Source: a bacterium
GTDB taxonomy: Bacteria; AUK180
Length of the DNA: 64,000 nucleotides
Assembly: GCA_023133295.1 (NCBI GenBank)
Contig: JAGLWT010000116.1
Location: 13,218 to 77,217, forward strand
Direction: 5' to 3'
A program made the position numbers and the translations under genes. Numbering within the stretch: the first letter of the stretch is position 1; each line of letters starts with the position of its first letter. The notes beneath the pieces are model-generated. The model had not been told where the DNA came from and searched no databases. It saw only the letters and a list, made by a program, of their open reading frames with translations. This document shows, piece after piece, positions 10,023 to 52,260 of the stretch.

Positions 10023-10194
10023 ATCTCCTCCTACTGCCAGCAGTATAACACGGTCTACGATTAATAGCAAGCACCGTTTCTTCCTTTACAGACAATACAT
10101 TCTCCCGCTAAAATGTGGCAGAATGAAAGGCAAAGGGATGGATTCCTGATATTAAACCTTGTCCCTGGGGCATTGGTCCACTGGGTCACTGCTT

Positions 10195-10322: not shown

Positions 10323-10411
<89 letters not shown>

Positions 10412-17700: not shown

Positions 17701-18035
17701 CCAGAAGAATCAGAAACGATCAAACTTCCCATGTACAGGTGATCATAATCCATATACTCATAATAAGCGCCATAGGCCCCCCAGTCCCTTCCCTGGAAGG
17801 AAGTACCCACGCCAAGGTCGGTGGCGCCCGTAACAAACTGATGATCGAAATAACCGCCGAGAAAAGAAAAATTGGTGCCGTCACATCCAGAATAGATGTA
17901 ATCTGCAAGCCAATGTGTCATATACGGCTTATTCCCGTCATTTCCCCACACCCACTCAGGGGTTTCGTAAGAACAAATTGAAACGCTGAACGCGATTAGC
18001 AAAAGGGACAATAGAACTTTCTTTAAAGCTCCCAT
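14790..18035 (-). CDS. Large secreted protein (1081 aa) with a T9SS C-terminal sorting domain; catalytic or adhesive function unknown
   Basis: Signal peptide MGALKKVLLSLLLIAFSVSICS. C-terminus PNPF...ATITIYDIKGGLIRTI...GLYFYVI...KGKLVIVR matches a Por_Secre_tail type-A CTD. The N-terminal 900 aa are Gly/Tyr/Asp-rich beta-type sequence with no recognised catalytic motif. Confidence 0.7.
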   Translation of the reverse strand: MGALKKVLLSLLLIAFSVSICSYETPEWVWGNDGNKPYMTHWLADYIYSGCDGTNFSFLGGYFDHQFVTGATDLGVGTSFQGRDWGAYGAYYEYMDYDHLYMGSLIVSDSSGSWLLQGSNGNANDFSHANFIQTYFLQEHDYFLDQGGGPVANDSFWGMVRYDRHFAPRHAIYAPLESYCKIMDKYSHSPQGISVDARTFSYTSENANNFFESVALDWADYDINPAFYHPDFDNIMLKAYVITNNSDSEKEVFVTQRLDADIRTRWSEAAVVVDYEYSTGSPETLGFYIPDGGQNDDMAAWVEPDFNRTGNFGVIYDEQSTAGENPYFVLGVKLLNKDESPAGFKIISYDPAYSDIDSNGIDDNIPVAYAIDRPLGDSISSQEFGLMPWNPMVATYSDFVGQGFDSNTAVKGNYAIALTAGPYELEAGESKVVFFAIGKSMGDTLDAAIDALDASYDAMADMHNVGLNYADIAPPAAPSLTNYYEYYNPETCLTEFRLIWDPADFNSSETVPYAAGYQVFMFAGGKADFRFHRLGDNGGLQRLTGYLSNSPTSYAVYTSTSYVLSSTDYVSSASGEYNFGISAHDDAYYNYSTDLADFYSGYFNESVPAYLLEMTFEPYFTTAIGEISFYLDDNSNIFRLMWTEPLSREKDIEKYEITRNAVLAHTVYVQNGAYEYLQSAATDHVVYAKYGDEDYRFNLSDVTYIDTSSLTEVLIDLSEYNYSAGNNIEKIIVNNFCLQEIANSTPFTISTSDTSPVNYFWEGYGTTKTVFYETNTQKMVWESLDDWGATFYRVSDGSKIYSLWDLPNGYSWVQDTTLYLTSYPEIMVDWVYPELSGDITVNYTVKKYDYHTSLGELPVETGSVFTNPDYPTNLVAIDTNKSVTLTFNKASGDIFRYYVYRCSTAAIYDSVEPLDEDYIEKIGAVASTGADTYTFVDTYIDEYATYYYFVTSFNRTTDLESKPSNIATVSKDFDKEQNLELAHCVPNPFIYGTADALQENNHMVFVQLTENATITIYDIKGGLIRTIEHSATSETTYGDGGEKWDLMNEDGKAIATGLYFYVITNPDDDEDVMKGKLVIVR

Positions 18036-18258
18036 AGGACCTCCTATAATAATTGTTTAGATATTATACCAAATATATGTTTTGAATTCAATATGTCAAA
18101 ACTTATTGAGCGGTATTAAGATGCTGAAAAATAATTTCTGCAGTTTTCCTTTCTCCTTCCGAAGTAAAATGAAAATTCTGAGGGTCTCACCATTTCACTC
18201 TCAACTTAATTTTACTTTTGTGGAGCGGCCGGTTTTGGAGATCCGTGAATAATAAGTA

Positions 18259-18591
18259 TTAGTTCTCCTGCTTATTCTCCAGAATAATTTCTATATAGGG
18301 ATTTTTCTCAGAATAAATATCGTTGAGGCCGACATATCTCCATTGCTGTCTGTTTGGAGTTCCGGTACTATCATGCAAAAAAATCAATATTGGCTTATAT
18401 GCTTCTTTGAATTTCAGATAGCATATTAACGTATTTTCATCCTTTCGAAAACTGTACCCCTGAAAAACTACTGGGCCACAATCTCTATTAATCATAATAT
18501 CCGGAGATAAATCTATTTCTGACTTACTTTTCGCACATTTCTGCAGATAGAACTCTGTTGATAACCTATCGAAATAAAATGGATACGCCAA
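18259..18591 (-). pseudogene. Orphan or truncated copy of the C-terminal domain shared by the GT-C-like membrane proteins at 21108..24877
   Basis: YLKFKEAYKPILIFLHDSTGTPNRQQWRYVGLND aligns with FLRFEKYKPIYLFFHDNFEKPTYQKWRYIDYKLLD from the C-terminus of the 601-aa protein. There is no membrane domain upstream. Confidence 0.5.
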
Positions 18592-18884
18592 CTCTGATTT
18601 CGATTCAAAAAAGCTTTCCCGAGAAAAAGGTCGATGGCAGGATCAATGTCACTTCTAAATACTCTTTTATTTTAAAATATCATATGAGTATTGAAGTTAA
18701 CTGAAAGGTTCTCCGAAGAGAGTAAGATCATATCGCTTCTTAATTCTGAAAATATCACCTCGCTGAATCCTATATTGTGAAACCGCCAACGCAGATACCC
18801 GTCAGATATGACTTTAATATTGTGTGGGGACTCAAATGATGGCATTTTTTCAATTAAACCTCTATTGTTGGTATTTTTCCTGCT

Positions 18885-20231
18885 TTGATGTATAATTTAC
18901 CTATGAAGGCAGTAATAATTGGCGCGGGATTAGCCGGTATCAGCGCGGCAAAATCCTTGCATGAAACAACTTTGTTCGACATGATCACATTGCTGGAAAA
19001 GAATCCGTATATTGGCGGAAGCGCCCACTCATTTTCCTTTGACGGTCTTCTATTTGACACTGGACCGCATCGTTTTCACACGCATAGCAAAGAGCTTAAA
19101 TCCGAAATAATATCTCTCTTTCGTGAAAGTGAGTTGGTATTGAAGAAAAAATCCAGCTCGATTTTTTTCAGAGAAAAAATATTGAACTACCCGATAGAAA
19201 TGAGTGATGTTCTCTTCAAACTACCATTAACCGATTCCGTTTCTTCGCTTAGTTCCTACTTATCTTCAAAGATCAGAAATGGCTTCAGACAGCAGGAACC
19301 CGCGAATTTCGAGGAGTATATAATTTCTAATTTCGGAAGAAAACTATATAATATCTATTTCCGCCCGTACACCGAAAAAATGTGGCATATGCCCGCCAAG
19401 GACATCTCCTCTCTCTGGGCAACGGAGAGGATCCCTTTGGCATCTTTTTCAAAGCTACTTCTAAAAACTGTCGTATCTCTATTCAAGCGGCGTTTCAAAG
19501 AGAGCCACCCTCACTCTCCATATGAAACCCTTTTTCTTTATCCCGAAAACGGCATAGAGATGATCTCACAGCGCCTGATACCCGGGGGCATTGAATTATT
19601 AAAAGGATTTGAAGTAAAGAGTGCTGTAAATAACGGAGATAGGCTGACCGCTGTATCTAACGGAGACATGATAGTTGAAGGCGACCTTTTCATTTTTACA
19701 AATCCGCTGCCGCAAACCGCACGGATGTGTTTAAACACCGACGCAGCAGATCTGAAATACCTGCCGATACATATGTTTTTTATTCCGATCGAAACCGCAC
19801 GGATATCCCGTAACCACTGGATATATTTTCCGGATACAAAAGATGTTTTCTACAGGGTATCAGAGATGAAAAATTTCACAAACACATACCCGGAGAACAG
19901 GACCTCGCTCATTGTTGAAGTTGGAGAATTGCACAATGACAGCGTGGACGAAACTTTCGAGCTCATTATCAAGCAGCTTTCAGAAAAGGGACTCCTGCAA
20001 GCCCGGCATATCCGTAAGGGTAATTTTAAATATCATTTTCTGAAGAACGGATATCCTATATATAAAAAGGGTTTTGAAGCAAAAAGGGAAATGATGTACT
20101 CAAAACTCGGCCATATAAAAAATGTAGGCATTGCGGGCAGGCAGGGGCTGTTCTCATATTTGAATATGGACGCGGCAATACTATCCGGCAGAAGGACGGC
20201 GGAAAATTTACTTACAGAGCTTAAGAACTGA
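18885..20231 (+). CDS. FAD-dependent oxidoreductase, UDP-galactopyranose-mutase (Glf)-like
   Basis: MKAVIIGAGLAGISAA dinucleotide-binding motif (the likely true start is the ATG at 18903). GGSAHSFSFDGLLFDTGPHRFHT closely resembles the Glf GG..(x)..GPHIFHT motif. At 448 aa it is longer than canonical Glf. Confidence 0.5.
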   Translation: MMYNLPMKAVIIGAGLAGISAAKSLHETTLFDMITLLEKNPYIGGSAHSFSFDGLLFDTGPHRFHTHSKELKSEIISLFRESELVLKKKSSSIFFREKILNYPIEMSDVLFKLPLTDSVSSLSSYLSSKIRNGFRQQEPANFEEYIISNFGRKLYNIYFRPYTEKMWHMPAKDISSLWATERIPLASFSKLLLKTVVSLFKRRFKESHPHSPYETLFLYPENGIEMISQRLIPGGIELLKGFEVKSAVNNGDRLTAVSNGDMIVEGDLFIFTNPLPQTARMCLNTDAADLKYLPIHMFFIPIETARISRNHWIYFPDTKDVFYRVSEMKNFTNTYPENRTSLIVEVGELHNDSVDETFELIIKQLSEKGLLQARHIRKGNFKYHFLKNGYPIYKKGFEAKREMMYSKLGHIKNVGIAGRQGLFSYLNMDAAILSGRRTAENLLTELKN

Positions 20232-20819
20232 TAATCGTCCTGAAAACGATGAAGCCGTCTTTTTCATATACTTTTTCAAAATTCAGATCTGCAGTCTTTT
20301 CCACCAGGAAGGGTTTTTCAGGGATCCATTGATTAGAATATGCCCGCATATCTTCAAGGCTCACTACCTCTAAAGGAATGAGATTGTTCTTTTTCCCGAA
20401 AAAATACGGGTTGGGAACTATATAATTGATCCGGTTCCTTAAAACCATCTTTTTCATCTCTGCAGGGGTGATATCGGGATGGAAAAAGTCATCGTATTCC
20501 CTTTTTCTATGAAGAACATCCGCGGCCGCGGGATTTGCCACCAGCGGCCATACATGGAATGCGTAATTGTCCGTGGATGTGGCGATATGATAGGCTGTCC
20601 ATTCATCGGAAAGAATATTTTTTTCTCTATTTTATTGTCTGTAAAATAAGTAATGACGCCGGGGAGTTTCGCTTGATCACCCTTGGGTATATGGCGGTTT
20701 AGCAGTGAGAAATTCCGCTTAATGTTGCCTGTATTGAAAAACATCAAAAGGAGTATAATGATACAGATAGTTCCGATAATATAGGGCCGCTTAATTTTCT
20801 TCAGAAGTAACGCCGCCAC
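20221..20819 (-). pseudogene. Frameshifted, N-terminally truncated paralog of the 773-aa membrane protein (26215..28536)
   Basis: Two overlapping track ORFs in different frames. One reads KGDQAKLPGVITYFTDNKIEKK. The other reads NILSDEWTAYHIATSTDNYAFHVWPLVANPAAADVLHRKREYDDFFHPD...NYIVPNPYFF. Together they align collinearly with residues about 500-773 of the 773-aa protein (KLPEIIRYFNKNNIKGGNIISDHWTSYHMAIFTNNYAFAIWPLVADPNAKDVLQREKDYRIFFNE...YIILNPYFY). The frame switches within an A7 homopolymer near 20622-20630. Confidence 0.65.
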
Positions 20820-21107
20820 ATAAGCAATAATAAGAAATACCGTGATAATGTTCGGGAGCTTTGATGCGTATGCACTTGAAATCAGTTTTGATATCAGAGG
20901 AACAAAAAATGGGTTATCGGGTCCCCGATGTAATCGGGGTTTCCAAGGTCACACGCTCAATAACGATAATGACAGTACTTTTTTAGTCATTCCTGTCCCA
21001 TATTAAGCATGTACTCAACTTGATTGGTTGTGCGGGGTAAACTGCATCGTGATAATCTCATTTTCAATTCTTTCCTTATCAACCTACCAACCTATCAACT
21101 TATTTAC

Positions 21108-22913
21108 TTAATTCACTGATATTTCCATTTTGTAATTATTTTTATCTCCAACGGGATAAATGGGCTTCAAATTATCATCGGTAAACAGAATATAGCCATT
21201 TTTGACATCACCTTTAATCTCCATATCAATTTTTACATTTTTTTCTGAATCAAGTAACTTATAGTCAATATATCTCCATTTTTGATAGGTAGGTTTTTCG
21301 AAGTTATCATGAAAAAACAAATATATCGGTTTATATTTTTCAAATCTTAAAAAAGTGATCAGTGTCTTTTTTTCTTCCTTTATTTTTATTGAATAACCTC
21401 TAAATCTAAAATATTTAAAATCCTTATTCAATATATTTTCCGGATTCATTTCAATTCTTTTGTTATTTGCAACTCTATACAATTTTGTATCAATTAAACT
21501 CCGTTCAAAGATAATCGGGAAGGTGTTGTTCCCACATATAAATGTTCCTTTTATAAAAAGATCAAAAGGAAGTTTCGTTTTTCTACTGTAAGATTTCATT
21601 AACATAATATTATACGGTAATTCATTCTTTATAATTAAATTTTCTAAATTTGCATTTGTAGCGATTAACATATCCGCTTTCATTTTTCCAAAATCAAGTT
21701 CCGGAATATTATTTTTATAAAACAAATACCTACTTGCTTCACCGCTTACAGCATAGATTTTCTTATTTTCGTTATCGTTAATTACTTTGTTTCCGACCTC
21801 CGCTGCCGTCTTTGAGTAATCGTAAAATCCTGTAATAAATATTAGAGAAAATGAGATTGCAAATATTAGTTCAAATACACTAAATTTTCTTTTAAATAGA
21901 TTATCTCTTGAATAAAATATAATGAACGGAAATATTAAAGAAAAATTCCTTACCGTTGGCTGCGGATACACAATTATAATTGCAAAAGATATAAAAAGTA
22001 ACCACAAAATATTTTTAAGATCAAATAGCAAAAGGATAGAAATAAGCAAATAGAGAGAAATAATGAATGCAATAATTTTTGAAATATCCGTATTCAAATA
22101 GATACAAAGAAATAATATAGGTAAAAGGAAAAAATACATTTTCTTTTTTCGGGATAAATAGATTAGGATTGGTAATGTAAGAATAGCTAAGTTAATTGGA
22201 ACCGAAAATACTTTTTGAAAAAATCCTATCCTATTTCCGTAATGGTAATCTCCTCTCCATACCAAGGCATCCAAAATAACATTTCCCCCTTTTTCAATAT
22301 AACATATTAGGATATAAAGAAAAATAACAATGATTGGAAAAAAGTAAATGTATACTTTCTTATCTTTTCGTATGATCATATCTATTAGAAAAAACAAGGC
22401 AACTAAAATTATAGCGTAATTTGTTAGAAGTGAAAAGGACAAAAACAAAGATGATAGAATAATATCTTTTAATTTTCTACTTTTTTTATAATCTTCATAT
22501 TTTAAGAAACTTAATATCAGAAAAACAAAGCAGTATGCTTCATGCATAAATGAATTAACAAACAACAAAACAATTGGTGAAATAAATACCAGAAATATTA
22601 GATATTTTTTAGCGGTATATTTTCTAATTATCAGCATAAACACAAAAAGGTAGAGCAAACTTGAAAAAAGATAAAATAAAAATATGTCCTCCTGAATTGG
22701 GAAAAGCGAGGCAAAGAGTAATAAAAGCGGCGGATGCGTATCATTATATACATAAGATTCTTTACCGTAATATGAAAAAGAAGCATTAAATAAACCGCCA
22801 TTTTTGATTGATATCGCGCTAATTAAGTTTTTGGAACTATCCCAAAAGGGAGGGATGAAAATAGTTACTAACACCAGTACGGTTAAAATTATAATGAGAT
22901 ATTTCTTTTTCAC
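21108..22913 (-). CDS. Multi-TM membrane protein, GT-C fold ArnT/PMT-like (GT39/GT83-type) putative glycosyltransferase with a conserved C-terminal soluble domain
   Basis: More than ten predicted TM helices. The first extracytoplasmic loop contains NDTHPPLLLLF, like the HPPL motif of PMT_2/ArnT-type GT-C enzymes. The C-terminal about 110 aa (FLRFEKYKPIYLFFHDN...YQKWRYI...VKNGYILFTDDNLKPIYPVGDKNNYKMEI) is shared with the protein encoded at 22925..24877. Confidence 0.45.
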   Translation of the reverse strand: MKKKYLIIILTVLVLVTIFIPPFWDSSKNLISAISIKNGGLFNASFSYYGKESYVYNDTHPPLLLLFASLFPIQEDIFLFYLFSSLLYLFVFMLIIRKYTAKKYLIFLVFISPIVLLFVNSFMHEAYCFVFLILSFLKYEDYKKSRKLKDIILSSLFLSFSLLTNYAIILVALFFLIDMIIRKDKKVYIYFFPIIVIFLYILICYIEKGGNVILDALVWRGDYHYGNRIGFFQKVFSVPINLAILTLPILIYLSRKKKMYFFLLPILFLCIYLNTDISKIIAFIISLYLLISILLLFDLKNILWLLFISFAIIIVYPQPTVRNFSLIFPFIIFYSRDNLFKRKFSVFELIFAISFSLIFITGFYDYSKTAAEVGNKVINDNENKKIYAVSGEASRYLFYKNNIPELDFGKMKADMLIATNANLENLIIKNELPYNIMLMKSYSRKTKLPFDLFIKGTFICGNNTFPIIFERSLIDTKLYRVANNKRIEMNPENILNKDFKYFRFRGYSIKIKEEKKTLITFLRFEKYKPIYLFFHDNFEKPTYQKWRYIDYKLLDSEKNVKIDMEIKGDVKNGYILFTDDNLKPIYPVGDKNNYKMEISVN

Positions 22914-22924
22914 ATCAATAATCT

Positions 22925-24877
22925 TTATTTTATCTCCATTTTACAGTTATTTTTATCTCCAATGGGATAAATGGGTTTCAAATTATCATTGGTAAACAGG
23001 ATATAACCGTTTTTGACACCACTTTCAATCTCCAGATCAATTCTTACATTTCCGTTCAGATCAAGCAAGTAGTGAGCAATATATTTCCATTTTTGATAAT
23101 CAGGTTTTCCGATATTATCATGAAAAAAAGCATAAGTCGGTTTATATTTTTCAAATCGTACGAAAAGACTCAATATCTTTTCTTGTTCATTCTCTTCAAT
23201 TGAGTAGCCTATAAATTTAAAATACTTAAAATTCATATTTATAATATGTTCCGGTTTCACTTTTCTTGTCTTTATTTTAGCGAAGTGATTTTGTCTATCA
23301 AATCTGAAAATATTAATATTTTCCAATTCAACATTGGATAATGAGTACGGTAATATTCCTAAGTTATTATCATAAAATCCTGCATGTGCCTTGGCGTTCA
23401 TTATTCTATATGGAAACTTACTTTTATAAATAACTTTTTCTATGTGAAGCAGATCCGGTCTAATACTATTTTTTAATTCAGCTGGACATGAATAAGTTGG
23501 AATGATCATTATATCATTTTCCTTTAATTCATTTGAATTCCAGCAATAATATTTAGCATCTATCTTCTCTAAATAGTATCTAAAGCCCCATTCACCCATA
23601 AACCAGACTCTGTTGTTTTTAACAGTAGATTTGATTTCATCAGCAAATCTTTTATAGCTTTCTGCAAATCTATAATCAGCATAAGTAATGCCGATGGTAT
23701 TTCCTAATGTAAGTATTAGCGTAATTGCAATGAACACTTTTTTTAATACTAAATTTAAATTCAAATTTATTAGATCATACGAAATAATAATTGTAATAAC
23801 CGGCAATGTAATTAATAAATATCTTGCAATGCCCAACGGCATAATTAAAGTACAAATGATTAAATACAAAAGAAAGCAAATTGATAAGAATTTTGTAACA
23901 GAATTATTGGGTCTTATAAATTCTTTAATAATTCTAAACATAATTAATAATCCGGAAAATAGAAATATTATAAATAATGACCTGCTTATAAAATTGAAAT
24001 TCCTGGTAAAAAATATCGTACAAGCGATAGTTATTAGTAATTGAATTATTAATAACTTTTTATTTACCGACTTAAGAAGATACAGAGCTATTATTGATAT
24101 GGGGAAAATAGTGGTGGAGCCTATCACTATAATATTTGAAATAAATTTAGGAATGAGCATTGATATAGCCCTTAGCTTTAAATTTGTGTCACCGGGCCAC
24201 ATTAACGCATATAATGGATGTGGAAATCCAAATTTTATTGTTGTGAAGATTATCCAGATCAATATTGATGATAAACAAATTAAAAAGGGTATATAATAAA
24301 TAAATTTCTTTTTTTTGAAAATAAGATAGTACAAAACAAACAAAAAAAGTAGAAATATACCCCGATAATCAATTCCCCATGATATTATTGAAGTAAGTCC
24401 TGATAAAATTAAGAGTAACACATTGTCGTTTTTTACTCCTTTTATAAAAAACAAAAATGCTAATAAAAAAAATGAAAACATTGGAACATCACTCATTATA
24501 CTAATTGACGAAGTAAACAGTATTGAAGAGAAGGAAAACAGAAAGATTGCTGTAAAAGAAAACAAATCAAATTCCTTTAGTATAAAGTACATAGAAACAA
24601 TAGATAAAATATAGAAAATAATATAAAATAAATGAAAATAAGTTTCATTTACCTCTCCTACAATTATATAACAGAAATGACAGTATAAAAAGTTTAGAGG
24701 TGGCTTGGTAAATTTGTAATACGGTACAGTTTCACCAAGAAAATATACATAATTCTCCTTCGAAAAGAAATTCTTTATAGGAACTTGACCATAAGGTGTC
24801 CTCTGAATAGATTCAATTGTCTTATGGTCATCTATATTGAATGGTTTGTTTACAAAAATTAACTGGACTGATAACAT
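22925..24877 (-). CDS. Multi-TM GT-C-like putative glycosyltransferase, tandem paralog of 21108..22913
   Basis: Same architecture. Loop motif YKFTKPPLNFLY. C-terminus FVRFEKYKPTYAFFHDNIGKPDYQKWKYI...GVKNGYILFTNDNLKPIYPIGDKNNCKMEIK. The 3' ends are about 85-90% identical to 21108..22913 at the nucleotide level (compare 21125-21200 with 22935-23010). Confidence 0.45.
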   Translation of the reverse strand: MLSVQLIFVNKPFNIDDHKTIESIQRTPYGQVPIKNFFSKENYVYFLGETVPYYKFTKPPLNFLYCHFCYIIVGEVNETYFHLFYIIFYILSIVSMYFILKEFDLFSFTAIFLFSFSSILFTSSISIMSDVPMFSFFLLAFLFFIKGVKNDNVLLLILSGLTSIISWGIDYRGIFLLFLFVLYYLIFKKKKFIYYIPFLICLSSILIWIIFTTIKFGFPHPLYALMWPGDTNLKLRAISMLIPKFISNIIVIGSTTIFPISIIALYLLKSVNKKLLIIQLLITIACTIFFTRNFNFISRSLFIIFLFSGLLIMFRIIKEFIRPNNSVTKFLSICFLLYLIICTLIMPLGIARYLLITLPVITIIISYDLINLNLNLVLKKVFIAITLILTLGNTIGITYADYRFAESYKRFADEIKSTVKNNRVWFMGEWGFRYYLEKIDAKYYCWNSNELKENDIMIIPTYSCPAELKNSIRPDLLHIEKVIYKSKFPYRIMNAKAHAGFYDNNLGILPYSLSNVELENINIFRFDRQNHFAKIKTRKVKPEHIINMNFKYFKFIGYSIEENEQEKILSLFVRFEKYKPTYAFFHDNIGKPDYQKWKYIAHYLLDLNGNVRIDLEIESGVKNGYILFTNDNLKPIYPIGDKNNCKMEIK

Positions 24878-25390
24878 GATGATCAGTAATAAAAAAAACT
24901 TAATTCCTTTTAAATTATATTTTTCTATAATAACTAACCATCCTTTTCTTTAAGGAACCTTTTCTCGCTTCCTTCGGTCATTTCAGATTTTTTTAAATCT
25001 CCTTCTCTATCGTAAGTCTGCTCCTTTTTGACATATTGCCTTCATTTCATCCGAAAGGACGAATTCCATTTCGCTACGCTGCATTCCATTCGCCCTTCAT
25101 GGTGTAAACTATTGTTTGTCTCACTTTCAAGGGAGAGCAGGACATTGTGACCTATCAGATTAGTTGAAATATATCGGATTTTTCAGAAAAAGTCAAATAA
25201 TTTATTGTTTCTATATATCAAAATATGCGTTTTTTTATTCTAACCATTTTGATTTGATAATATTTTTAAGTTCACGATTGCCTTTAACATTTAAATGATA
25301 AGTTTTATCGAGAGAGAGTTTATCCGGAATAAAAATGCAACTTTTTATATCTAATTCCTTATTAATTTTTTCAATATCATCCACCATTTT

Positions 25391-26218
25391 TTAAAAAAAA
25401 TAATACTTATTATCTTTTTTGTTCTGTGTCAACATATAATTCCCAAGTATAATAATTGACAAATTGTATTCATTCTGAATCTTTTTTATAAGATACCTAT
25501 ACCTATTTAATCCTTCATTATAATCTTTACTGTACTTTTTAAAATATTCATAACTGTCTTCTCCTTGATAGTATTGGCTTTTCTTTTTGTCTTTAATATT
25601 TAATGATAAATACATCGGGTGCAAAAGAGCAATCAATGGATCATTATTTATAATCCAGGGAAATGCTCTTTTATTGGGATAAACTATTGAATATTCATTC
25701 CCATTTTTAACTATTGTCGGGGCTGATCCTGGATAACGAAAGAACTCTCCAAAATCATTTCCTATATAGAAAATAATAAGCACATTTGAACCTTTTGAGA
25801 TATTATATTTTTTAAGTAAAAGATACTCTTGTATCGGCGAATATGTAATAACCCCGAAATTATAAAAATAATACCCATTCCCCTCTTTATTTAACAGAGA
25901 TGTAAAGAGATTGTTGTTTATAACATAATTATCAGTTTGAGAATCTCCCAATACATATATAGGAATCTCATTATCTCTTATTTTTCTGCAATTTCGATTA
26001 CCATATTTCCCTGTTTTGATCTTTGCCTTTGATCGTCGAGCCTGATAAAATTCATTGTGTTTAATTCCAAGTATATTATCATAAACATAGGAACCATATC
26101 CATTTTTACCCTTATTAAAACCACTGATATTACAATGAACAAATAAAATAATATCCAATAATAAAAAACAAATTATAATAAAAAGTAGTATCTTTAAAGC
26201 TTTTTTGAAGATATTCAT
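25391..26218 (-). CDS. SGNH/GDSL-family hydrolase-like protein (possible glycan O-acyl esterase or transferase)
   Basis: N-terminal TM anchor. IPIYVLGDSQTDNYV gives a GDS(x) block-I motif. Overlaps the upstream 773-aa gene by 4 nt. Confidence 0.45.
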   Translation of the reverse strand: MNIFKKALKILLFIIICFLLLDIILFVHCNISGFNKGKNGYGSYVYDNILGIKHNEFYQARRSKAKIKTGKYGNRNCRKIRDNEIPIYVLGDSQTDNYVINNNLFTSLLNKEGNGYYFYNFGVITYSPIQEYLLLKKYNISKGSNVLIIFYIGNDFGEFFRYPGSAPTIVKNGNEYSIVYPNKRAFPWIINNDPLIALLHPMYLSLNIKDKKKSQYYQGEDSYEYFKKYSKDYNEGLNRYRYLIKKIQNEYNLSIIILGNYMLTQNKKDNKYYFF

Positions 26219-28536
26219 TTTAAGTTCACCATTATAAATCTTTTATTTCTAATGGGTAAATACGGTCTATGATTCCTATCTGTAAAAATGATTTTATAGT
26301 CTCCATTATTCTTAGATATCTTAATATGACATTTAACAAAAGACCATACACCCATTTCTTCCATAGTTAATGAGTGCCAATTTTGTACTACAAGTTTATC
26401 ATCCTTATAATTATGAATAAACATAACCAGATCATCATCTATTTCCTTCATCTTTAAATATATTTCATAGATATAATTATTTTCTTTTTCAATCTTGTTA
26501 TACCCTAAAAAAATGAATTTTCTATAATTTAAATTTACTTTATGTTTATAATCCAAAGCTATTTTTTTGCTTTTATCTAACATTTGATTGCTATGGAAAT
26601 TCATCTTAAAAATATAATATCCATTTTCACAAAAAACCTGTTCTGCATTTAACTTTAAAACTTTATCTACAATAAAATTCCGATCCGGGCCCCATTGTAA
26701 AGAGTGTTTCCACATATTTTCAATAGAATTTACTTCAATGGCTTTAACATTTCGTTCCGGTTTATAAAAATAGGGATTTAATATTATATACTTTATACCC
26801 CATTTTTTTAAGATTTCATCCATTTCTTTTACTTTAGTTTTCTCATTAAAAAAGATTCTATAATCTTTCTCCCGTTGTAGAACATCTTTGGCATTGGGAT
26901 CAGCTACGAGTGGCCAAATTGCGAAAGCATAATTATTTGTAAATATAGCCATGTGATATGAAGTCCAGTGGTCTGATATTATATTTCCCCCTTTTATATT
27001 ATTTTTATTAAAATATCGTATAATTTCGGGCAACTTGCTTTTTTGTGATACACCTATATTATTCTTTATCAGTTTATAATCGCGTACCAAATTCTTAAAG
27101 ATTTTGGGACTTATAATCAGCAAAAAACATATTAGCAAAAAACCGAAATATTTTGTCTTCAATTTCTTTTTCAATTCAAGAATTATAAAAGCCAAAATTA
27201 AAAAAGCAGGTACAAATATACTTAATTTCGAAGCATAAGCACTACTGATTATTTTTGATAAACCTACTACAAGAATTGGATTTAACAACAACAAAGGAGA
27301 AAGGACTGCTGTTGATATCATAAATTGTAAAGTAGTGTTTCTTCTAATTTTTTTAATAAAAAACAATATTCCTAAAAAAGCTATCAATGGAGTAATCGGA
27401 TAAATTGTAGGTGGTAGTGTAAACATAATATAGATTTGGCGAAAGACAAATTTTGGATGAATAATAAACAGATTTTTTGTAAGAAAGACGAGGTGATCCG
27501 GAAGAAAGAAAGCTTGCTGTGCAAGTTGTGGATCATAATGTAATGGATTGTGAATACCATAAGATAACCATTTTAGAATGTAATAAGGAATATTGAAAAT
27601 CGTAACATAGAAAAAGATCTCTATAACCCTTCTATTACTTTTATCCCTCAATAATATTTTCACAAGAAATATCGCAAAGAGCGAAAGATAGAAAAGAATC
27701 ATATAGAATATCTGAAATTCCGTCAATATCAAAGAAATAATTATTGTAGTCCAAAGGTATTTTTTATCACTGCTGTCAAGGTATTTAATCATTTCAATTA
27801 GTGCCAACGGCAATATCGTATACATTGCAATAGCATCCGCGAGTGCAAATTTTCTCAATATCAATCGCTCATACCCTATTCCCCCGAAATGAAAAATAAA
27901 TACTAATACTACAAGTAAACCACCAAGATTTTTCTTCAAAAGATGTTTCCCAAAACAATATTGGGCAAATATAGCAATAAAGCTCATATACGCCGGAAGA
28001 TTTATCCATATTTTTAAAGGATCCAATCCGGAAATTTTGCTGTAAATCAATATCATAAAATGGTAAAGGCTAAAAGAGAATCTCGGATCCATCCCTTCAT
28101 TACTATAGACAAAATTCTTGTTTTGCACTATATTGTTAAAAAGAGATTTGTAAATTATGGAAAGGTTGTTAAGATCGTTTGCAATATCTCCTTTAATAAT
28201 ATAAAGCAATATTACATAAACCAGTGCTATACCAATTGTAACAGATGAATAAGTGTTAAGCGGTATGATTTTTGTGCTTTTTATTTTTTTTGAAAGCAAT
28301 AGAAACAAAAAGAACATTACTAATAAAATATATATTACATATACTAAAAATACCGTTTTTTTAAGCGATAGCTCAAAAAGAAACCCTAAACCACAAGGGA
28401 TATAATAAATTAAAAGGGAAAGCACAAAGAAATACGGAACTTTTTCAATACCTAATTCCTGAGAAAAGAAAATTCTATATATGACGATGCCTGGAACAAT
28501 AAATAAAAAAATAAAATAGAGTAATTCAATTATCAT
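26215..28536 (-). CDS. Large multi-TM membrane protein (773 aa), GT-C/YfhO-like putative glycosyltransferase, with a related C-terminal soluble domain
   Basis: About 14 TM helices followed by a roughly 280-aa C-terminal soluble region. The last 80 aa (DDLVMFIHNYKDDKLVVQNWHSL...GDYKIIFTDRNHRPYLPIRNK) resemble the C-terminal domain of the 601-aa and 650-aa proteins. The pseudogene at 20221..20819 is a paralog. Confidence 0.4.
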   Translation of the reverse strand: MIIELLYFIFLFIVPGIVIYRIFFSQELGIEKVPYFFVLSLLIYYIPCGLGFLFELSLKKTVFLVYVIYILLVMFFLFLLLSKKIKSTKIIPLNTYSSVTIGIALVYVILLYIIKGDIANDLNNLSIIYKSLFNNIVQNKNFVYSNEGMDPRFSFSLYHFMILIYSKISGLDPLKIWINLPAYMSFIAIFAQYCFGKHLLKKNLGGLLVVLVFIFHFGGIGYERLILRKFALADAIAMYTILPLALIEMIKYLDSSDKKYLWTTIIISLILTEFQIFYMILFYLSLFAIFLVKILLRDKSNRRVIEIFFYVTIFNIPYYILKWLSYGIHNPLHYDPQLAQQAFFLPDHLVFLTKNLFIIHPKFVFRQIYIMFTLPPTIYPITPLIAFLGILFFIKKIRRNTTLQFMISTAVLSPLLLLNPILVVGLSKIISSAYASKLSIFVPAFLILAFIILELKKKLKTKYFGFLLICFLLIISPKIFKNLVRDYKLIKNNIGVSQKSKLPEIIRYFNKNNIKGGNIISDHWTSYHMAIFTNNYAFAIWPLVADPNAKDVLQREKDYRIFFNEKTKVKEMDEILKKWGIKYIILNPYFYKPERNVKAIEVNSIENMWKHSLQWGPDRNFIVDKVLKLNAEQVFCENGYYIFKMNFHSNQMLDKSKKIALDYKHKVNLNYRKFIFLGYNKIEKENNYIYEIYLKMKEIDDDLVMFIHNYKDDKLVVQNWHSLTMEEMGVWSFVKCHIKISKNNGDYKIIFTDRNHRPYLPIRNKRFIMVNLK

Positions 28537-28786
28537 TTTTAGTTATTATATAAATCTTGGAAATCCCGAAAAACCATGAATAAGCATTTTTTATCAGGGA
28601 TTTTATGATTTTTTTAAAGCGGAGTGTAACAATACTGATATAATTTTCCTTATTATGGTAAGGGCTTTTTATCCCAAAAAGTAAACGAAAATATGGATTT
28701 GAATTTAAAACAAATCTGGACTGTATCCATGTAAACTTAAATATCAGTTTATTTTGAAATATTCTTTCTATTACGGTCATAGTCAT
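28526..28786 (-). CDS. Small hypothetical protein (86 aa) whose start and stop both overlap the neighbouring genes
   Basis: The ORF overlaps the start of the 773-aa gene (28526-28536) and the stop of the methyltransferase gene (28783-28786), consistent with translational coupling. No recognisable family. It could also be a spurious bridging ORF. Confidence 0.3.
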   Translation of the reverse strand: MTMTVIERIFQNKLIFKFTWIQSRFVLNSNPYFRLLFGIKSPYHNKENYISIVTLRFKKIIKSLIKNAYSWFFGISKIYIITKNDN

Positions 28787-29646
28787 CTACCCTCTACTTT
28801 TTTTGCATAAATTGTTGCCACATCAAAAAGATTGAGATATATTTTAATCTTTCCTATCTTATTTTTCAATAAAAATAAATATATCGCTTTAAATATAGGA
28901 AATTTTCTTTGAATATGATAAAAGATATGTCTTGAATAATAAAATTTCCCGTAATATTTAATAGATTTAATTTCAAACCCATTATTATTACAAAAGTATT
29001 TAATACTTTTCTTTGTAAAATAATTTAAATGATATGGGGGTATAAAAAGGTACCATTTTCTCCCCATTATTCGAGCAAATAGTGAATCTATCAGAGGAAC
29101 TGTTAATATGAGCGCTCCATTTGCATTAAGATCTTTACCTATGTTACGGAGCATTCGCGCGGGGTATTTTACATGTTCAAATATATCAAATGCGGTGATA
29201 ATATCATATTTCGTATCTTGTGAAGAGGTTTCGTAATTATGAACTTTCAGGTCAAGAAAGTATCTTTCCTTTCCAAGGGCAATAATCTCCTCTCCTATAT
29301 CAACACCCTGAAGCTGCATATTCGAAATTTCGGAAATGGAGTAAAGAAACTCACCGGAAGCACAACCGATATCTAAAAGAGAAGATGCTCGCTTGGAAAC
29401 ATGTTTCACAAGCCTTCTGAAAATCTGACACCAATTTCCATCAATGCAATCGTCAATATAATTTCCGTATCCTTCGTCACTATTTGGATTTACAAAGGAG
29501 TCCAGATTATATAGATCGTCATATCGTATATCTGCAAAACCCTCATAGAACACCGAGCCGCAATTTGAACATTTTACATGCTTTTTCACAATCTCTCTTT
29601 TCAATATCATAAGGGAGTTGCAGCCGCATAATTTACATTTTTTCAT
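28783..29646 (-). CDS. Class I SAM-dependent methyltransferase with an N-terminal zinc-ribbon (sugar C/O-methyltransferase-like)
   Basis: CKLCGC...CSNCGS zinc ribbon. LLDIGCASGEFL matches motif I (GxGxG-like). A later D..FEH(V) acidic motif is typical of Methyltransf_11/12-family enzymes. Confidence 0.65.
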   Translation of the reverse strand: MKKCKLCGCNSLMILKREIVKKHVKCSNCGSVFYEGFADIRYDDLYNLDSFVNPNSDEGYGNYIDDCIDGNWCQIFRRLVKHVSKRASSLLDIGCASGEFLYSISEISNMQLQGVDIGEEIIALGKERYFLDLKVHNYETSSQDTKYDIITAFDIFEHVKYPARMLRNIGKDLNANGALILTVPLIDSLFARIMGRKWYLFIPPYHLNYFTKKSIKYFCNNNGFEIKSIKYYGKFYYSRHIFYHIQRKFPIFKAIYLFLLKNKIGKIKIYLNLFDVATIYAKKVEGR

Positions 29647-29750
29647 ATTTAAATATTTAGTTTTCCATGATTCTGAACAACTCTACTCCTTCACATCGAG
29701 GAGAAGAGAAATAATTATTGTAAAGCAAAAGACTGCTTTTGCTATTTATT

Positions 29751-31412
29751 TCATTTCTCAATTTTATAATCTCCCATTACGAGAATATCGATCCCTGTGC
29801 CGCTAAATGTATTTATCGCATCCTGAGGAGTGCATACGATCGGCTCTCCCCTGATATTGAAAGAGGTATTCAAAACCAACGGGATGCCCGTAAGTTTTTC
29901 AAATTCCCGTATTAGAGAATAATATCTCCCATTCTGTTCTTTACTTACCGTTTGAACCCTTGCCGTTCCGTCGACATGTACAACTGCAGGTATTTCTTTC
30001 CGCTTTTGCTGAACTGTATCGAAAACAATTGTCATATAAGGAGATTTACCGCAGCCGATAAAATAATCTCCGGCTTTTTCCTCAAGAACACTTGGTGCAA
30101 ACGGGCGGAAACCCTCTCGATGCTTGACCTTTTCATTAATAAGGTCTTTCATGTCCTTCTTTCTGGGATCCGCAAGAATGCTTCTGTTGCCGAGGGCGCG
30201 TGGTCCGAATTCCATTTTCCCCTGATACCAACCGACTATTTTCCCCCTGCTTATTTCCAAAGCCGTATCCTTTTCTATTTCACTTGATCTTGTAAAATGA
30301 AGTTTATTCTTTTTGAGAACATTCAATATCTCTTCATTGTCAAAAGCAGGACCCAGATAGGCATTATTCAACGGCAATTTACTTTCATTACCAAGTATAT
30401 TATAGTATCCGTACAGAGCGGCGCCAAGCGAAGTTCCCGCGTCATTGGAAGCGGGCTGGACATACATATCTTCGATATCGGTTTCTCTGAGCAACCGTCC
30501 ATTAGCAACCGAGTTCAGGGCGACGCCTCCTGCCATACAGAGATATTTCAAGGAGTATTTGTTGAGATAATACCGTACTACCTCTAGAAGCACTTCCTCT
30601 GTAACTTTTTGTAAAGAAGCGGCCATATCCATTTCAAGATCCGTAAATTCAGTAGCATTGTCATGGGGATAGAAGTTATGCTTTCTTTCAAATTTTTCAG
30701 TGATATAACTCTCCCAGCCATGTGAGAGATTGAATTTTGAAAGATCAAAAGAAAACCGTCCTTTGCCTACCCTTACAAGTGACATGATCTCAGAAAAATA
30801 CTTCGGTGTACCGTAAGGAGCCAGGCCCATGAGCTTACCTTCTCCATTATGTGCTTTGAACCCAAGATACTGAGTGATATCAGAATACAGCATTCCCAGG
30901 GAATGAGGGTAGTTCACATGTGCCACCTGTTCAATAAGGTTACCCCTTCCGATTCCAACGGTCATCGTCTCGAATTCCCCTGAATGATCAATTGATAGTA
31001 TAAGGGATTCGTCGAAGCCGCTCGGATAGAAAGCGGAGGCCATATGCGCCATATGATGTGATATCTTGACAAAGCGGGCATCTCTTAATATATCAATAGC
31101 CCTTACCTTTTTCCTGATGCCCAAAAGAGATGATACATATGAGCTCCTGGAATGAAGGTATTTTAACGATGAGGGAAATCGCAGCAGAAGAAATCCCGCC
31201 CGCTGAAACAGCATGGGAGTATTGAGCCAGGGAAAAACGATCAGCTCAGGAGAAGTATCATACTTGTTGCCGATAAGCTCAAGGGATTCATGCGGAAAAA
31301 CCGATGTATGTTTTTCTCTTGAAAGACGCTCCTCCTCGATCGAGAATACGGATTCCCCTGAGATCACAGTTATAGAAGAATCATGTGTATAACAATTCAA
31401 TCCCAGTATCAT
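29751..31412 (-). CDS. Carbamoyltransferase, NodU/CmcH family
   Basis: MILGLNCYTHDSSITVI...EEERLSREKH...HHMAHMASAFYPSGFDESLILSIDHSGE...ALNS...SFN matches the NodU/CmcH N- and C-terminal domains along its length. Confidence 0.85.
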   Translation of the reverse strand: MILGLNCYTHDSSITVISGESVFSIEEERLSREKHTSVFPHESLELIGNKYDTSPELIVFPWLNTPMLFQRAGFLLLRFPSSLKYLHSRSSYVSSLLGIRKKVRAIDILRDARFVKISHHMAHMASAFYPSGFDESLILSIDHSGEFETMTVGIGRGNLIEQVAHVNYPHSLGMLYSDITQYLGFKAHNGEGKLMGLAPYGTPKYFSEIMSLVRVGKGRFSFDLSKFNLSHGWESYITEKFERKHNFYPHDNATEFTDLEMDMAASLQKVTEEVLLEVVRYYLNKYSLKYLCMAGGVALNSVANGRLLRETDIEDMYVQPASNDAGTSLGAALYGYYNILGNESKLPLNNAYLGPAFDNEEILNVLKKNKLHFTRSSEIEKDTALEISRGKIVGWYQGKMEFGPRALGNRSILADPRKKDMKDLINEKVKHREGFRPFAPSVLEEKAGDYFIGCGKSPYMTIVFDTVQQKRKEIPAVVHVDGTARVQTVSKEQNGRYYSLIREFEKLTGIPLVLNTSFNIRGEPIVCTPQDAINTFSGTGIDILVMGDYKIEK

Positions 31413-32374
31413 TCAATTCTCCGTATATGATCGGCCAGAACCCCTGCAATATATCTATTGCCTTCCGGAGAAAAGTGAATATCATCCACATAAAGGTCAT
31501 CATAAAGCAAGAGATCGGTTTTGCGCATTTCCTGTGAGATATCCACAAAATCTACTCTGCATTCCTGAAACACTTCCCTCATTACTTCCTGATATGAAAA
31601 GTCCGCTCTATTGAGTAATTGATATCTTAGCGGAGTAATTATAAATATGGGGTGGATCTTTCTCTTCTCGCAGGTCATTTTTATTCTCTCTATCTTCTTT
31701 GTCAGATCTTTGCGCAAATACGGATCATTATATTTCATGGCAGCGGAAGCGTAAAATTCTTTGCTGTTATAAGCTTTTTCATAATTTCCGGCAAAGAGGA
31801 GCTTTGCTAATGCAAATAAATATGAATACGAAAAAGGGCGCTTTGTTACTATAACCTCGGCGTCTGTGTCAAGTTCCAGAAAACCTATCCCGTTCAGATG
31901 AAATGCATAAAGTATATCATCGATAAAATACTGCCATACTACAATTTCGGGGGGATTTTTCTGGAGATTCTTCTCCAATATCACAATATTTTGATCAAGT
32001 CCATAGCCGCAAACCCCCATATTGTGAACATTGAATTCTTTCAATTCGCCTTGAAGAAACACCGGGTAGGTTTCATCGTCCTCAACTCCCAGGCCGGCAG
32101 TAATGGAATCGCCTATGCAGATAATGTTTTTTTCTGACTTCTCTATGGTATTCAAATTCCTGTACCCTGATGAATTTATTGTAAATTTCTTATTTCGCCA
32201 CATATATGACGATGATTTTCTATAACGATATCCAAGTTCACTGTCTTTTTCGAAAATTCTTCTGTCATAATCCTGTAGCTTTGATATGGGGTCCAATAGT
32301 CTTGCAAGGCCTTCAAAAAGCAGAAAAAGGATCAAAAAAAACAATAAATACTTAGACAGCCGTTTTATCAACAA
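31409..32374 (-). CDS. SGNH/GDSL-family hydrolase-like protein
   Basis: N-terminal TM. IICIGDSITAGLGV block-I motif. Later DDIHFSPEG, similar to the DxxH catalytic block. Overlaps both flanking carbamoyltransferase genes. Confidence 0.55.
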   Translation of the reverse strand: MLIKRLSKYLLFFLILFLLFEGLARLLDPISKLQDYDRRIFEKDSELGYRYRKSSSYMWRNKKFTINSSGYRNLNTIEKSEKNIICIGDSITAGLGVEDDETYPVFLQGELKEFNVHNMGVCGYGLDQNIVILEKNLQKNPPEIVVWQYFIDDILYAFHLNGIGFLELDTDAEVIVTKRPFSYSYLFALAKLLFAGNYEKAYNSKEFYASAAMKYNDPYLRKDLTKKIERIKMTCEKRKIHPIFIITPLRYQLLNRADFSYQEVMREVFQECRVDFVDISQEMRKTDLLLYDDLYVDDIHFSPEGNRYIAGVLADHIRRIE

Positions 32375-34043: not shown

Positions 34044-34083
34044 TATCTAATAATTTATGCAAGATTCTTCCGATTGGAGGAAA

Positions 34084-34788
34084 TCATTTTTTCAGTCTTT
34101 CGCTGAAGAGGACAAAAAAGGCATAAATAGCATCTATCCAATGAATTTTGCTTTCCTCGACCTTTCTCGGAGTATAAGATATCGGGATCTCACAGAATCT
34201 ATAATTGAATTTAAAGATCTTTGCTGTGATCTCACACTCCATTTCAAATCCGTCATATTTCAGATTCAACGACTCCAGAATGCCTTTTCTGAACACCTTA
34301 TAGCCCGATGCTTCATCTGTAATATTTTTTCCATATAGTATCCGCACCGTCAGATTAATGAGTTTATTCGCCAGGAGCCGGGGAATTGATTTCATTTTTA
34401 CTTTTTTCAAAAATCTTGAACCGTATACAACATCGGCCTGCCCTGCTATGATCGGGAGTAACAAACCGGATATCTCTTCCGGATAATACTCCAGATCGGC
34501 ATCCTGAATAACAACAATATCACCGGAAGACACTTTCAAGCCTTTTTTTATTGAATAACCCTTTCCTCTGTTCACGCGGTTTTCACAAAGGATATCATAA
34601 AGATTGAAGTTCTCTTTCAATATTGCGTTCGAACTGTCTGTCGAACCGTCGTCCACTACGATGACTTCATGTTTAAATGAAAGCTTGGCGATCCGCTCAA
34701 GGACCTTCAGGATAGTTTCCGATTCATTGAAAGCCGGAATGATTATCGAGATCATCGCGTCAAATTCCGCGTTCTTCATATTTCTCAT
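34084..34788 (-). CDS. Family-2 glycosyltransferase, polyprenol-phosphate sugar synthase (Dpm1/ArnC/GtrB)-like
   Basis: ISIIIPAFNESETI, VIVVDDGSTDSS, VVIQDADLEYYPEE (DAD) and GSRF motifs at 234 aa are typical of Dpm1-like GT2 enzymes, which supply lipid-linked monosaccharide donors to GT-C enzymes. Confidence 0.7.
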   Translation of the reverse strand: MRNMKNAEFDAMISIIIPAFNESETILKVLERIAKLSFKHEVIVVDDGSTDSSNAILKENFNLYDILCENRVNRGKGYSIKKGLKVSSGDIVVIQDADLEYYPEEISGLLLPIIAGQADVVYGSRFLKKVKMKSIPRLLANKLINLTVRILYGKNITDEASGYKVFRKGILESLNLKYDGFEMECEITAKIFKFNYRFCEIPISYTPRKVEESKIHWIDAIYAFFVLFSERLKK

Positions 34789-37310: not shown

Positions 37311-37352
37311 CTATATTTCACCCGAAGAATGATCTACAGGTTCTTTCTGTTA

Positions 37353-51849: not shown

Positions 51850-52260
51850 ATTGGTAGAATGAATTATCACAGGGACAGAGATTGACCTGTCCTCCGTCAT
51901 TATCGTTATTGGGCGTGTCACCTTGGAAACCCCGATTACATCGGGGACCCGATAACCCATCTTTCTTGCTGTTTGTCAGCTTGAGTGTAACGAAAGATCC
52001 ATCTTTATTTCCTTCTCTCCAGCTTTTAACCTTGAACATTTGAACTTTTGAACAATCCTATCCGTTTCACACGAAAACATTCTCCACACATCTTTGATTG
52101 TCATTCCAGCGAAAGCGGGAATCCATCTGATATTTGCTTCTTGTGTTTTCCCCACTATTCGTTGTTCACTATACTTAAGCCTATCAACCATTTCTACACT
52201 ATTCATTATATTCTGTCATCCTGAGCTTCTCCGCGAAGGATCCTTCCCCCCGGAAGTTCG
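51850..52260. repeat. Repeat-rich intergenic island: reverse-complement copies of modules D and B, palindromic 'gtcattccagcgaaagcgggaatcc', 'gtcatcctgagcttctccgcgaaggatcc', and module G
   Basis: About 51866-51896 is the reverse complement of 'atgacggaggacaggtcaa(g/t)c(c/t)ctgtccctg' (compare 3768-3800). About 51971-52003 is the reverse complement of 301-333. The 52097-52124 unit is an inverted repeat (gtcattcc...gggaatcc). About 52150-52210 matches 10283-10312. Confidence 0.6.

Follow-up and report, generated by a model that had tools for sequence, protein, structure and literature searches.

A low-GC segment, probably imported laterally, within a strain-variable, O-antigen-like surface-glycan locus of an uncultured cold-seep bacterium

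Xenologous gene displacement and homology-facilitated illegitimate recombination during natural transformation have been described in Acinetobacter and Streptococcus pneumoniae. The O-antigen clusters of enterobacteria, such as the rfb cluster between galF and gnd in Salmonella and Escherichia coli, are hypervariable loci framed by conserved housekeeping genes. In Salmonella, these clusters are mosaics in which segments of 28 to 37% guanine plus cytosine (GC) lie in a genome of 51 to 52% GC, which has been interpreted as lateral transfer from sources that were lower in GC and differed in history (PMC3715488). Here, we describe a similar case in a 64,000-nucleotide stretch of DNA (the window; contig JAGLWT010000116.1 of assembly GCA_023133295.1, positions 13,218 to 77,217) from an uncultured bacterium of the lineage AUK180; the samples were sediments or fluids of Site-F, a cold seep in the South China Sea (PMC9357000). 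The window contains an AT-rich block, here called the island, that carries genes for three putative GT-C membrane proteins (GTC773, GTC650, and GTC601), an SGNH-like protein, and part of a methyltransferase. We consider it likely that this island is a low-GC segment that arrived recently by lateral import, lies inside a hypervariable, O-antigen-like locus, and took the place of a resident homolog.

The likeness to O-antigen clusters begins with position, as the locus is surrounded by genes for GAPDH, PGK, TPI, MurJ, and the valyl- and arginyl-tRNA synthetases (ValRS and ArgRS). As in those clusters, strains carry either unrelated gene sets or "alleles" of about 29% identity for one role (the Wzy_C/TPR protein and a GT2), and segments of lower GC occur together with remnants of earlier genes at the junctions. 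The present case differs in its host, an uncultured cold-seep bacterium with a putative surface glycan, and in the imported genes, which encode GT-C proteins of a near-orphan family rather than wzx, wzy, or GT-A/B products. It also differs in the nesting of the low-GC segment within a variable region of otherwise host-like GC. Because the variable region outside the island has a GC of 0.40 to 0.41, we regard the island as nested in an O-antigen-like locus.

The original prediction held that the DNA between about 20.8 and 29.7 kb is markedly more AT-rich than its flanks, and such an island indeed exists. A two-change-point likelihood fit over 17 to 33 kb placed steps at 21,051 and 29,035, between which GC is 0.270, against a local background of 0.405. 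Windows of 1 kb have a GC of 0.253 to 0.293 at 21 to 29 kb and 0.352 to 0.503 across the rest of the 64-kb stretch; 14 windows from the island (maximum, 0.299) show no overlap with 103 windows outside it (mean, 0.431; standard deviation, 0.032; minimum, 0.369), which corresponds to a z score of -4.8. Flanking GC is about 0.40 to 0.46 and that of the genome about 43%, placing the island, at 27%, 16 points lower. The oligonucleotide signature is also distinct, with a composition-normalized dinucleotide delta* (×1,000) of 104 against 29 to 88 for native 8-kb chunks, and a tetranucleotide correlation to the native profile of 0.685 against 0.86 to 0.96 for native DNA. Both steps are sharp, the change taking no more than tens of nucleotides. 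The right one lies not at 29.7 kb, as first proposed, but at about 29,035 to 29,046, inside the intact open reading frame (ORF) of the methyltransferase. The two pseudogene fragments that had been counted among the AT-rich sequences do not share this composition either, as GC is 0.38 to 0.42 at 20,236 to 20,915 and 0.36 at 18,220 to 18,588; no other feature of the locus is as informative as this contrast. The island genes all lie on the minus strand and are tightly packed, in the transcription order methyltransferase 3' end, orf86, GTC773, SGNH-like gene, a 357-nt spacer, GTC650, and GTC601 (Table 1).

Table 1. Coordinates of the island, its genes, and associated features (positions of the window)
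Feature	Coordinates	Strand	Remarks
Strain-variable surface-glycan locus holding the island	15436..37352		21.9 kb; limits are the ComEC stop codon on one side and the conserved 3' end of the surface-protein gene on the other
Decayed remnant of the C-terminal module of GTC601/GTC650/GTC773	18220..18588	-	GC 0.36, intermediate
NAD(P)-binding amine-oxidase/UDP-galactopyranose-mutase-like gene, intact	18885..20231	+	Host GC; between the two remnants
GTC773' remnant, host-GC pseudogene	20236..20925	-	Equals GTC773 residues ~417 to 645; one frameshift, no internal stops
70-nt repeat, copy 1	20903..20973	-	Abuts the truncation point of GTC773'; 78 nt from the island edge
AT-rich block (island proper)	21051..29035		7,985 bp; GC 0.270; from change-point fit, z score, 1-kb and 200-nt GC profiles
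GTC601, 601-aa polytopic membrane protein, paralog of GTC650	21108..22913	-	~13 hydrophobic segments; GC3 0.256
GTC650, GT39/PMT_2-type GT-C glycosyltransferase, 650 aa	22925..24877	-	Pfam PMT_2; GC3 0.253
Host-like-GC non-coding stretch in the island	24950..25150		GC 0.408; between stretches of 0.19 and 0.23
SGNH/GDSL-like gene	25235..26218	-	In-frame TAA at 25391-25393 gives a 275-aa ORF and a 50-aa tail
GTC773, 773-aa membrane protein with a GT-C fold, sparse DUF6077/DUF6541-like family	26215..28536	-	Extra C-terminal module
orf86	28526..28786	-	Overlaps both neighbors; an 84-aa gene in public annotation
Class I S-adenosylmethionine-dependent methyltransferase, compositionally mosaic	28783..29646	-	Pfam Methyltransf_23 (1.7e-22), residues 72 to 227
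70-nt repeat, copy 2	51896..51968	+	29 nt inside the strain-specific segment 51,868-54,956

Proteins rich in K, N, I, F, and Y, as those of the island are, are typical of low-GC proteomes. When the island proteins were re-encoded with native codon usage, their genes came to about 0.35 GC, compared with the observed value of about 0.27; the difference between observed and expected GC is -0.074 to -0.083 in the island genes, with a standard deviation of 0.017 among native genes. Roughly half of the GC deficit is amino-acid content and the other half synonymous codon choice. GC at third codon positions (GC3) is 0.23 to 0.28 in five island genes and 0.32 to 0.54 in the 39 other ORFs, which include native polytopic membrane proteins of like hydrophobicity (0.467 for the gene at 52510-54756 and 0.510 for MurJ). 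Membrane-protein amino-acid bias is therefore insufficient, and the GC3 and observed-versus-expected values rule it out as the full cause.

The same data bear on the alternative that the island genes have long been resident, or arose by local duplication, and turned AT-rich in situ, through selection for rare codons or low expression or through a local mutational bias. In situ AT enrichment has sometimes been argued for wzx and wzy genes. Processing and membrane genes are often the lowest in GC within polysaccharide clusters (PMC3715488), and the half of the deficit that is amino-acid composition would fit this scenario. However, AT-richness is just as marked in the soluble SGNH gene, in orf86, in the methyltransferase 3' end, and in most spacers as it is in the membrane-protein genes, and enrichment in situ accords poorly with steps that occur within tens of nucleotides, one of them in the middle of a gene.

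That gene, the methyltransferase, is a compositional mosaic. Its codons 1 to ~200 have a near-host GC of 0.37 and codons ~200 to 287 a GC of 0.20. In 30-codon windows, GC3 is 0.27 to 0.43 up to about codon 190 and 0.13 to 0.20 from about codon 200 (~29,046) onward. Both the reading frame and the Methyltransf_23 domain run unbroken over the GC step, and the 5' part would, we infer, be resident sequence.

This continuity is difficult to reconcile with an assembly chimera, in which an AT-rich fragment of another organism was misjoined into the scaffold. The window is a metagenome scaffold, its block proteins have no relatives tying them to the host lineage, and the left junction is documented from one sample only, all of which would suit such an artifact, but it would take two false joins, each bordered by host sequence from the same operon, and one of them would have left frame and domain intact. 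Furthermore, a 1,121-nt contig from a second, different sample (SAMN18200499) equals positions 28,627 to 29,747 with one mismatch (99.9%) and crosses the right GC step, and the NCBI (77.9 kb), ENA (125.6 kb), and Logan assemblies of the source sample agree in gene order. A chimera is thus exceedingly improbable.

At the other end, about 130 nt from the island, the remnant GTC773' provided us with a resident counterpart of an island gene. By tblastn, it is 43% and 36% identical to GTC773 in its two frames; after repair of the frameshift, identity is 41% over 230 residues, while the next family member reaches at most 25%. The best database match of GTC773 over the same region is 28% identical (among 1.84 billion representatives), and the two sequences are sisters in a neighbor-joining tree, each being the nearest relative of the other. 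With no other relative above 30%, this pairing is the only phylogenetic pointer available. The remnant starts at a near-invariant motif of the family, N418-P419 (DNPFFVPLISKLISSAYASKL in the remnant and LNPILVVGLSKIISSAYASKL in GTC773), and its 3' end coincides with the end of canonical family members. Over the same codons, GC3 is 0.43 to 0.47 in GTC773' and 0.24 in GTC773.

A nearest relative next door is what a tandem duplication within the locus predicts. However, a pseudogene with a single frameshift is too young for an identity of only 41%, more divergence than it could have survived, and we therefore conclude that GTC773 and GTC773' diverged in different lineages and, in turn, that the AT-rich copy came from outside. 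Nor is AT-richness a property of the GTC773 family. Five HMMER matches of the family were traced to their contigs, where gene GC minus flank GC is -0.012, -0.054, -0.005, +0.013, and -0.048, compared with about -0.15 in the window; these genes match their own flanks within about 5 GC points, which speaks against enrichment in situ.

The decayed remnant on the far side of the oxidase gene is 35% identical to residues 464 to 586 of GTC601 (tblastn, E = 1.6e-16) and 31% identical to GTC650, which shows earlier GT-C turnover at the site. The oxidase gene itself matches the Pfam families NAD_binding_8, Amino_oxidase, and GLF and the NCBIfam family PRK07208. The 703-aa and 558-aa proteins that a sister strain encodes at this locus show no similarity to the remnants and were ruled out as their source.

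The sister-strain locus was fetched from both sides and is the only alternative haplotype compared. A ValRS 97% identical to that of the window occurs on a 1.44-Mb scaffold and in the metagenome-assembled genome (MAG) GCA_030671845.1, and GAPDH, ComEC, and other flanking proteins have partners of at least 90% identity in the sister genome, while the proteins between ComEC and a 316-aa gene have none. In DNA, the blastn alignment holds at 92.6% up to 37,353, the stop codon of ComEC, and at 93.7% from 15,435 downward, with nothing between; on the latter side, homology resumes inside a 1081-aa surface-protein gene. The variable interval of 21.9 kb in the window thus corresponds to 18.1 kb of unrelated DNA in the sister, which has no AT-rich block. 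The sister genes encode an SGNH-like 349-aa protein, an acetyltransferase, a methyltransferase, WbqC, a spermine-synthase-like protein, an 841-aa Wzy_C protein, proteins of 339, 703, and 558 aa, and two GT2s. The only links between the two gene sets are distant (29% identity for the 841-aa Wzy_C/TPR proteins, 29% for a GT2, and 41% for the surface protein). In the window, the 841-aa protein scores 22.7 bits against Wzy_C, below the cut-off of 31.7, and is named "O-antigen ligase family" by NCBI; for its sister counterpart, a Wzy_C match is on record.

A fixed position between conserved genes with unrelated content in different strains identifies this as a hypervariable locus, and the absence of the island from the same site in the sister strain, with flanks 93% identical in nucleotide sequence, is what lateral acquisition leaves behind, as far as one haplotype can tell. 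All variable genes of the sister, Wzy_C included, have a GC3 of 0.38 to 0.47, which, taken with the evidence given above, renders enrichment in situ very unlikely. Of the two origins that the original prediction had offered, horizontal acquisition is therefore supported, by the foreign codon and oligonucleotide signature, the abrupt steps, the host-GC remnant, the other family loci, and the sister strain. The other, a different mutational or selective pressure, finds no support, given the AT-richness of non-membrane genes and most spacers and the host GC of the remnant and of the sister variable genes.

Considering these data, we propose a model for the import, although the specific order of events is less certain than the import as such. 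The composition, the edges, the homology of the remnant, the variability between strains, and the GT-C fold are observed, while the donor, the sequence of events, the mechanism of recombination, and the biochemistry are inferred. First, the resident locus would have read methyltransferase and GTC773', with the oxidase gene on the other strand. The incoming DNA would have carried a diverged version of this set, consisting of a methyltransferase 3' end, orf86, GTC773, the SGNH gene, GTC650, and GTC601. One end would have joined in frame inside the methyltransferase gene, giving a chimeric but intact enzyme whose frame was kept by selection, and the other would have replaced the first ~417 codons of GTC773', of which the 3' third would persist as a pseudogene. 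The route was probably uptake of foreign DNA followed by recombination with little or no homology.

Such a pattern resembles, and is compatible with, homology-facilitated illegitimate recombination after DNA uptake. In both cases, a foreign homolog stands beside a truncated resident copy, mobile-element genes are lacking, and one junction lies in a shared gene (here that of the methyltransferase) while the other is non-homologous. A gene for the DNA-uptake protein ComEC borders the present locus. A difference lies at the non-homologous end, where a host-GC spacer with a repeat is found here.

Several observations weigh against import as reconstructed above. The left join is not clean, since about 135 nt of host-GC spacer (20,916-21,050; GC, 0.444) separate the island from GTC773', which may have been truncated in a separate event before the import. 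At the right join, the 5' part of the methyltransferase gene has a GC3 of 0.27 to 0.43, near the lower limit of the host range, and the sister strain has no ortholog. The host-GC stretch inside the island could mean that there are two blocks. No donor emerged, as no close relatives of the island GT-C proteins were found in 15 billion proteins, in JGI metagenome contigs, or in phage and plasmid collections, and the island has no mobility genes, edge tRNA, or flanking direct or terminal repeats. Finally, sampling is thin, with one sister haplotype and a left junction supported by assemblies of a single sample.

The internal host-GC stretch leads to a variant of lateral transfer rather than an alternative to it, namely, that two or more imports took place at different times, one comprising 21,051 to 24,949 (GTC650 and GTC601) and one comprising 25,151 to 29,035 (the methyltransferase 3' end to the SGNH gene). 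The 200-nt stretch of 0.408 GC between neighbors of 0.19 and 0.23 would then be a scrap of host DNA between two imports, the adjoining SGNH gene is disrupted, and the remnants of at least two earlier GT-C genes show that turnover has been repeated. However, the two halves are equal in GC, GC3, and codon bias, and the unusual C-terminal module common to all three GT-C proteins suggests a single source. The stretch is purine-rich on the coding strand (fold z score, -2.06), has no Rfam match, and shows no similarity to the 64-kb window or the fetched loci; matching nothing in the host, it may instead be a structured leader or promoter region. On balance, we find multiple imports rather unlikely.

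A single lateral import, which we favor, also has to be set against the possibility that the island is cargo of a mobile element, such as a prophage, an integrative and conjugative element (ICE), a transposon, or an integron-like cassette. Like classical genomic islands, the block has an atypical composition, sharp borders, and a strain-specific presence; unlike them, it has no integrase, tRNA target, or direct repeats and is embedded in an operon, where it forms an in-frame fusion with a resident gene. A tRNA/integrase/direct-repeat island, a prophage, or an ICE was rejected, as none of their hallmarks occur in or by the block. The only tRNA of the window is at 10.3 kb, and known RNA families are absent from both the left edge and the internal GC bump.

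What speaks for mobile cargo is a dispersed 70-nt repeat, which could serve as the recombination site and of which both copies lie at edges of strain-specific GT-C segments. The copies are inverted and 94.5% identical, with an identical 41-nt core for which 0 chance matches are expected. The core reads ACCTTGGAAACCCCGATTACATCGGGGACCCGATAACCCAT, and the repeat has a CCCCGAT-TACA-ATCGGGG hairpin and could encode a short ORF (MGYRVPDVIGVSKVTR...). The repeat has no Rfam match and folds no better than shuffled sequences. However, a copy is present at just one island end, the two copies are oppositely oriented relative to their GT-C genes, and the repeat was not found in the sister-strain loci or, in an exact scan with the core, in JGI contigs. 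In addition, neither the block nor the adjoining part of the window encodes an integrase, a transposase, or phage proteins, and the neighboring ORFs have no recombinase domains; there are no edge tRNA or terminal repeats and no similarity to phage or plasmid records. We accordingly hold mobile cargo to be highly improbable. There is a similarly slim chance that the repeat marks a dedicated system of GT-C cassette exchange, be it an integron-like site or one mediated by miniature inverted-repeat transposable elements, that operates without a linked integrase; if it did, repeat-based exchange would let foreign glycan-modifying genes be swapped in.

The segment with the second repeat copy is itself a second, smaller variable glycan spot, of host-like composition. 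It holds a GT-C gene (52510-54756; GC, 0.394), and its flanks are 93% identical to the sister strain on one side and 90% on the other. At that spot, between MurJ and DUF3006, the sister has 966 bp that hold a Methyltransf_23 gene of opposite orientation. The original prediction had described this fourth GT-C gene as a native paralog; its composition is native as stated, but it has no detectable similarity to the island GT-C genes and is absent from the sister strain. The phylogeny of island GT-C genes against it was dropped for these reasons, the gene itself being accessory. In non-coding DNA downstream of this gene (52080-52260), we also observed palindromes, gtcattccagcgaaagcgggaatcc and tgtcatcctgagcttctccgcgaaggatcc, that resemble repetitive extragenic palindromic sequences.

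With regard to the proteins, a fold search assigns a GT-C membrane fold to GTC773, at an identity of only 6 to 13% to solved GT-C members. GTC773 has no Pfam or NCBIfam match, and its family profile has no sequence match in the PDB; its relatives match DUF6077, DUF6541, DUF1616, and PTPS_related. Residue D120, a candidate for the catalytic acid of the first external loop, is invariant in a 17-member family alignment. Over the full protein, the best match is at most 30% identical among 1.84 billion representatives, and word-indexed searches, started from either GTC773 or the family alignment, recovered nothing but the query and a handful of weak matches, because low-complexity membrane words saturate the candidate list. 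The island GT-C proteins as a group have no close relatives in 15 billion proteins, and a scan of JGI metagenome contigs with GTC650 found no relative.

GTC650 passes the Pfam PMT_2 cut-off marginally (26.4 bits against 26.1) and is named "glycosyltransferase family 39 protein" by NCBI. GTC601 has no Pfam or NCBIfam match and is placed in the family only by way of GTC650, to which it is 30% identical along its entire length (E = 2e-45). The last 333 nt of the two genes (22931-23263 and 21120-21450) are 79% identical in DNA, compared with about 30% for the rest of the proteins, which suggests module exchange or gene conversion between the 3' ends of these tandem paralogs. A related module of about 125 aa ends all three island GT-C proteins (about residues 648 to 773 in GTC773). 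It is predicted to be periplasmic in GTC601. The module has a predicted local distance difference test score (pLDDT) below 50 and is absent from most relatives. Compared with described GT-C enzymes (AftA, ArnT, PglB/STT3, and PMT/GT39), the three island proteins differ by this extra module, and GTC773 and GTC601 differ further in matching no curated family.

The five traced family loci are polysaccharide clusters with genes for Wzm/Wzt ABC transporters, GT2, GT4, radical-SAM proteins, and methyltransferases. In three of them, a Methyltransf_23 gene directly adjoins the family GT-C gene (L012, 8156-10873; L013, 426-3925; and L015, 1992-4615), and in L013 an NAD-binding oxidase gene lies nearby as well, a grouping that mirrors the methyltransferase, GTC773', and oxidase of the window. 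This recurrence suggests that a methyltransferase paired with a family GT-C protein forms a conserved functional module.

The SGNH-like gene is disrupted by an in-frame TAA, set in a T/A homopolymer context, that splits the body from a tail bearing the C-terminal D..H motif (catalytic block); both ORFs are in one frame. The alignment of the 349-aa sister-strain protein, from 26086 to 25349, continues past the stop without a break. The gene is either a recent nonsense pseudogene or the product of a sequencing error. Its Pfam Lipase_GDSL score (18.6 bits) is under the cut-off, and an intact ORF for an SGNH hydrolase was not found here. The small orf86 has no family matches.

The clearly assigned genes at the locus encode a GT2, two carbamoyltransferases, the SGNH protein, the methyltransferase, and the GT-C proteins. 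The GT2 gene (34084-34788), of host GC, resembles genes for polyprenyl-phosphate sugar synthases, its matches to AglJ, ArnC, and PpgS all falling short of the curated cut-offs. Judging by these families, the GT2 would make polyprenyl-phosphate sugars as lipid-linked donors, which the imported GT-C enzymes would move onto a surface glycan at the outer face of the membrane. The same glycan would be carbamoylated, methylated, modified by the SGNH protein, and processed by the adjoining Wzy_C/TPR protein. Should this proposal hold, the import would change the type of surface glycan of the cell.

While the event type is familiar, the case has features of its own: an uncultured host, near-orphan GT-C content, nesting, a legible displaced homolog, and a chimeric methyltransferase. 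It indicates that the O-antigen pattern, a fixed slot in which glycan genes are replaced by lateral and often low-GC DNA, is also at work in an uncultured deep-sea lineage. It further captures such an event at an unusually legible stage, with the displaced gene still recognizable by its foreign replacement and the neighboring enzyme gene an in-frame compositional chimera. The very sparse DUF6077/DUF6541-like family gains a genomic context and a GT-C fold assignment. For binning and annotation, the island is a reminder that an 8-kb block 16 GC points lower can truly belong to a MAG. How such loci evolve is understood no differently after this finding.

With respect to the host, no ValRS match outside the sister group exceeds 64% identity, and the named ones are about 50% identical and distributed over several phyla. 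A few fragments of at least 90% identity are labeled Candidatus Calescamantes in NCBI, a label from which we assigned no phylum. Synteny with reference genomes by way of the carbamoyltransferase was uninformative, the best match being 46% identical.

Both borders of the variable locus are worth describing in their own right. On the right, the conserved border is the ComEC/Rec2 DNA-uptake gene (37353-40253), exactly at whose stop codon homology between the strains stops. On the left, the 1081-aa secreted or surface protein (14790-18035) has a C-terminal sorting-type domain, and its last ~215 codons are kept in the sister strain (93.7% in nucleotides). The rest of this protein is about 41% identical to a 1110-aa sister protein, so that a hypervariable protein forms one border of the locus. 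Further out, at 8500 to 10300, next to a tRNA-Leu gene (10323-10411), we observed a local rearrangement relative to the sister strain, in which 9416 to 10240 matches a relocated segment at 78% identity, with neighbors at 94 to 95%.

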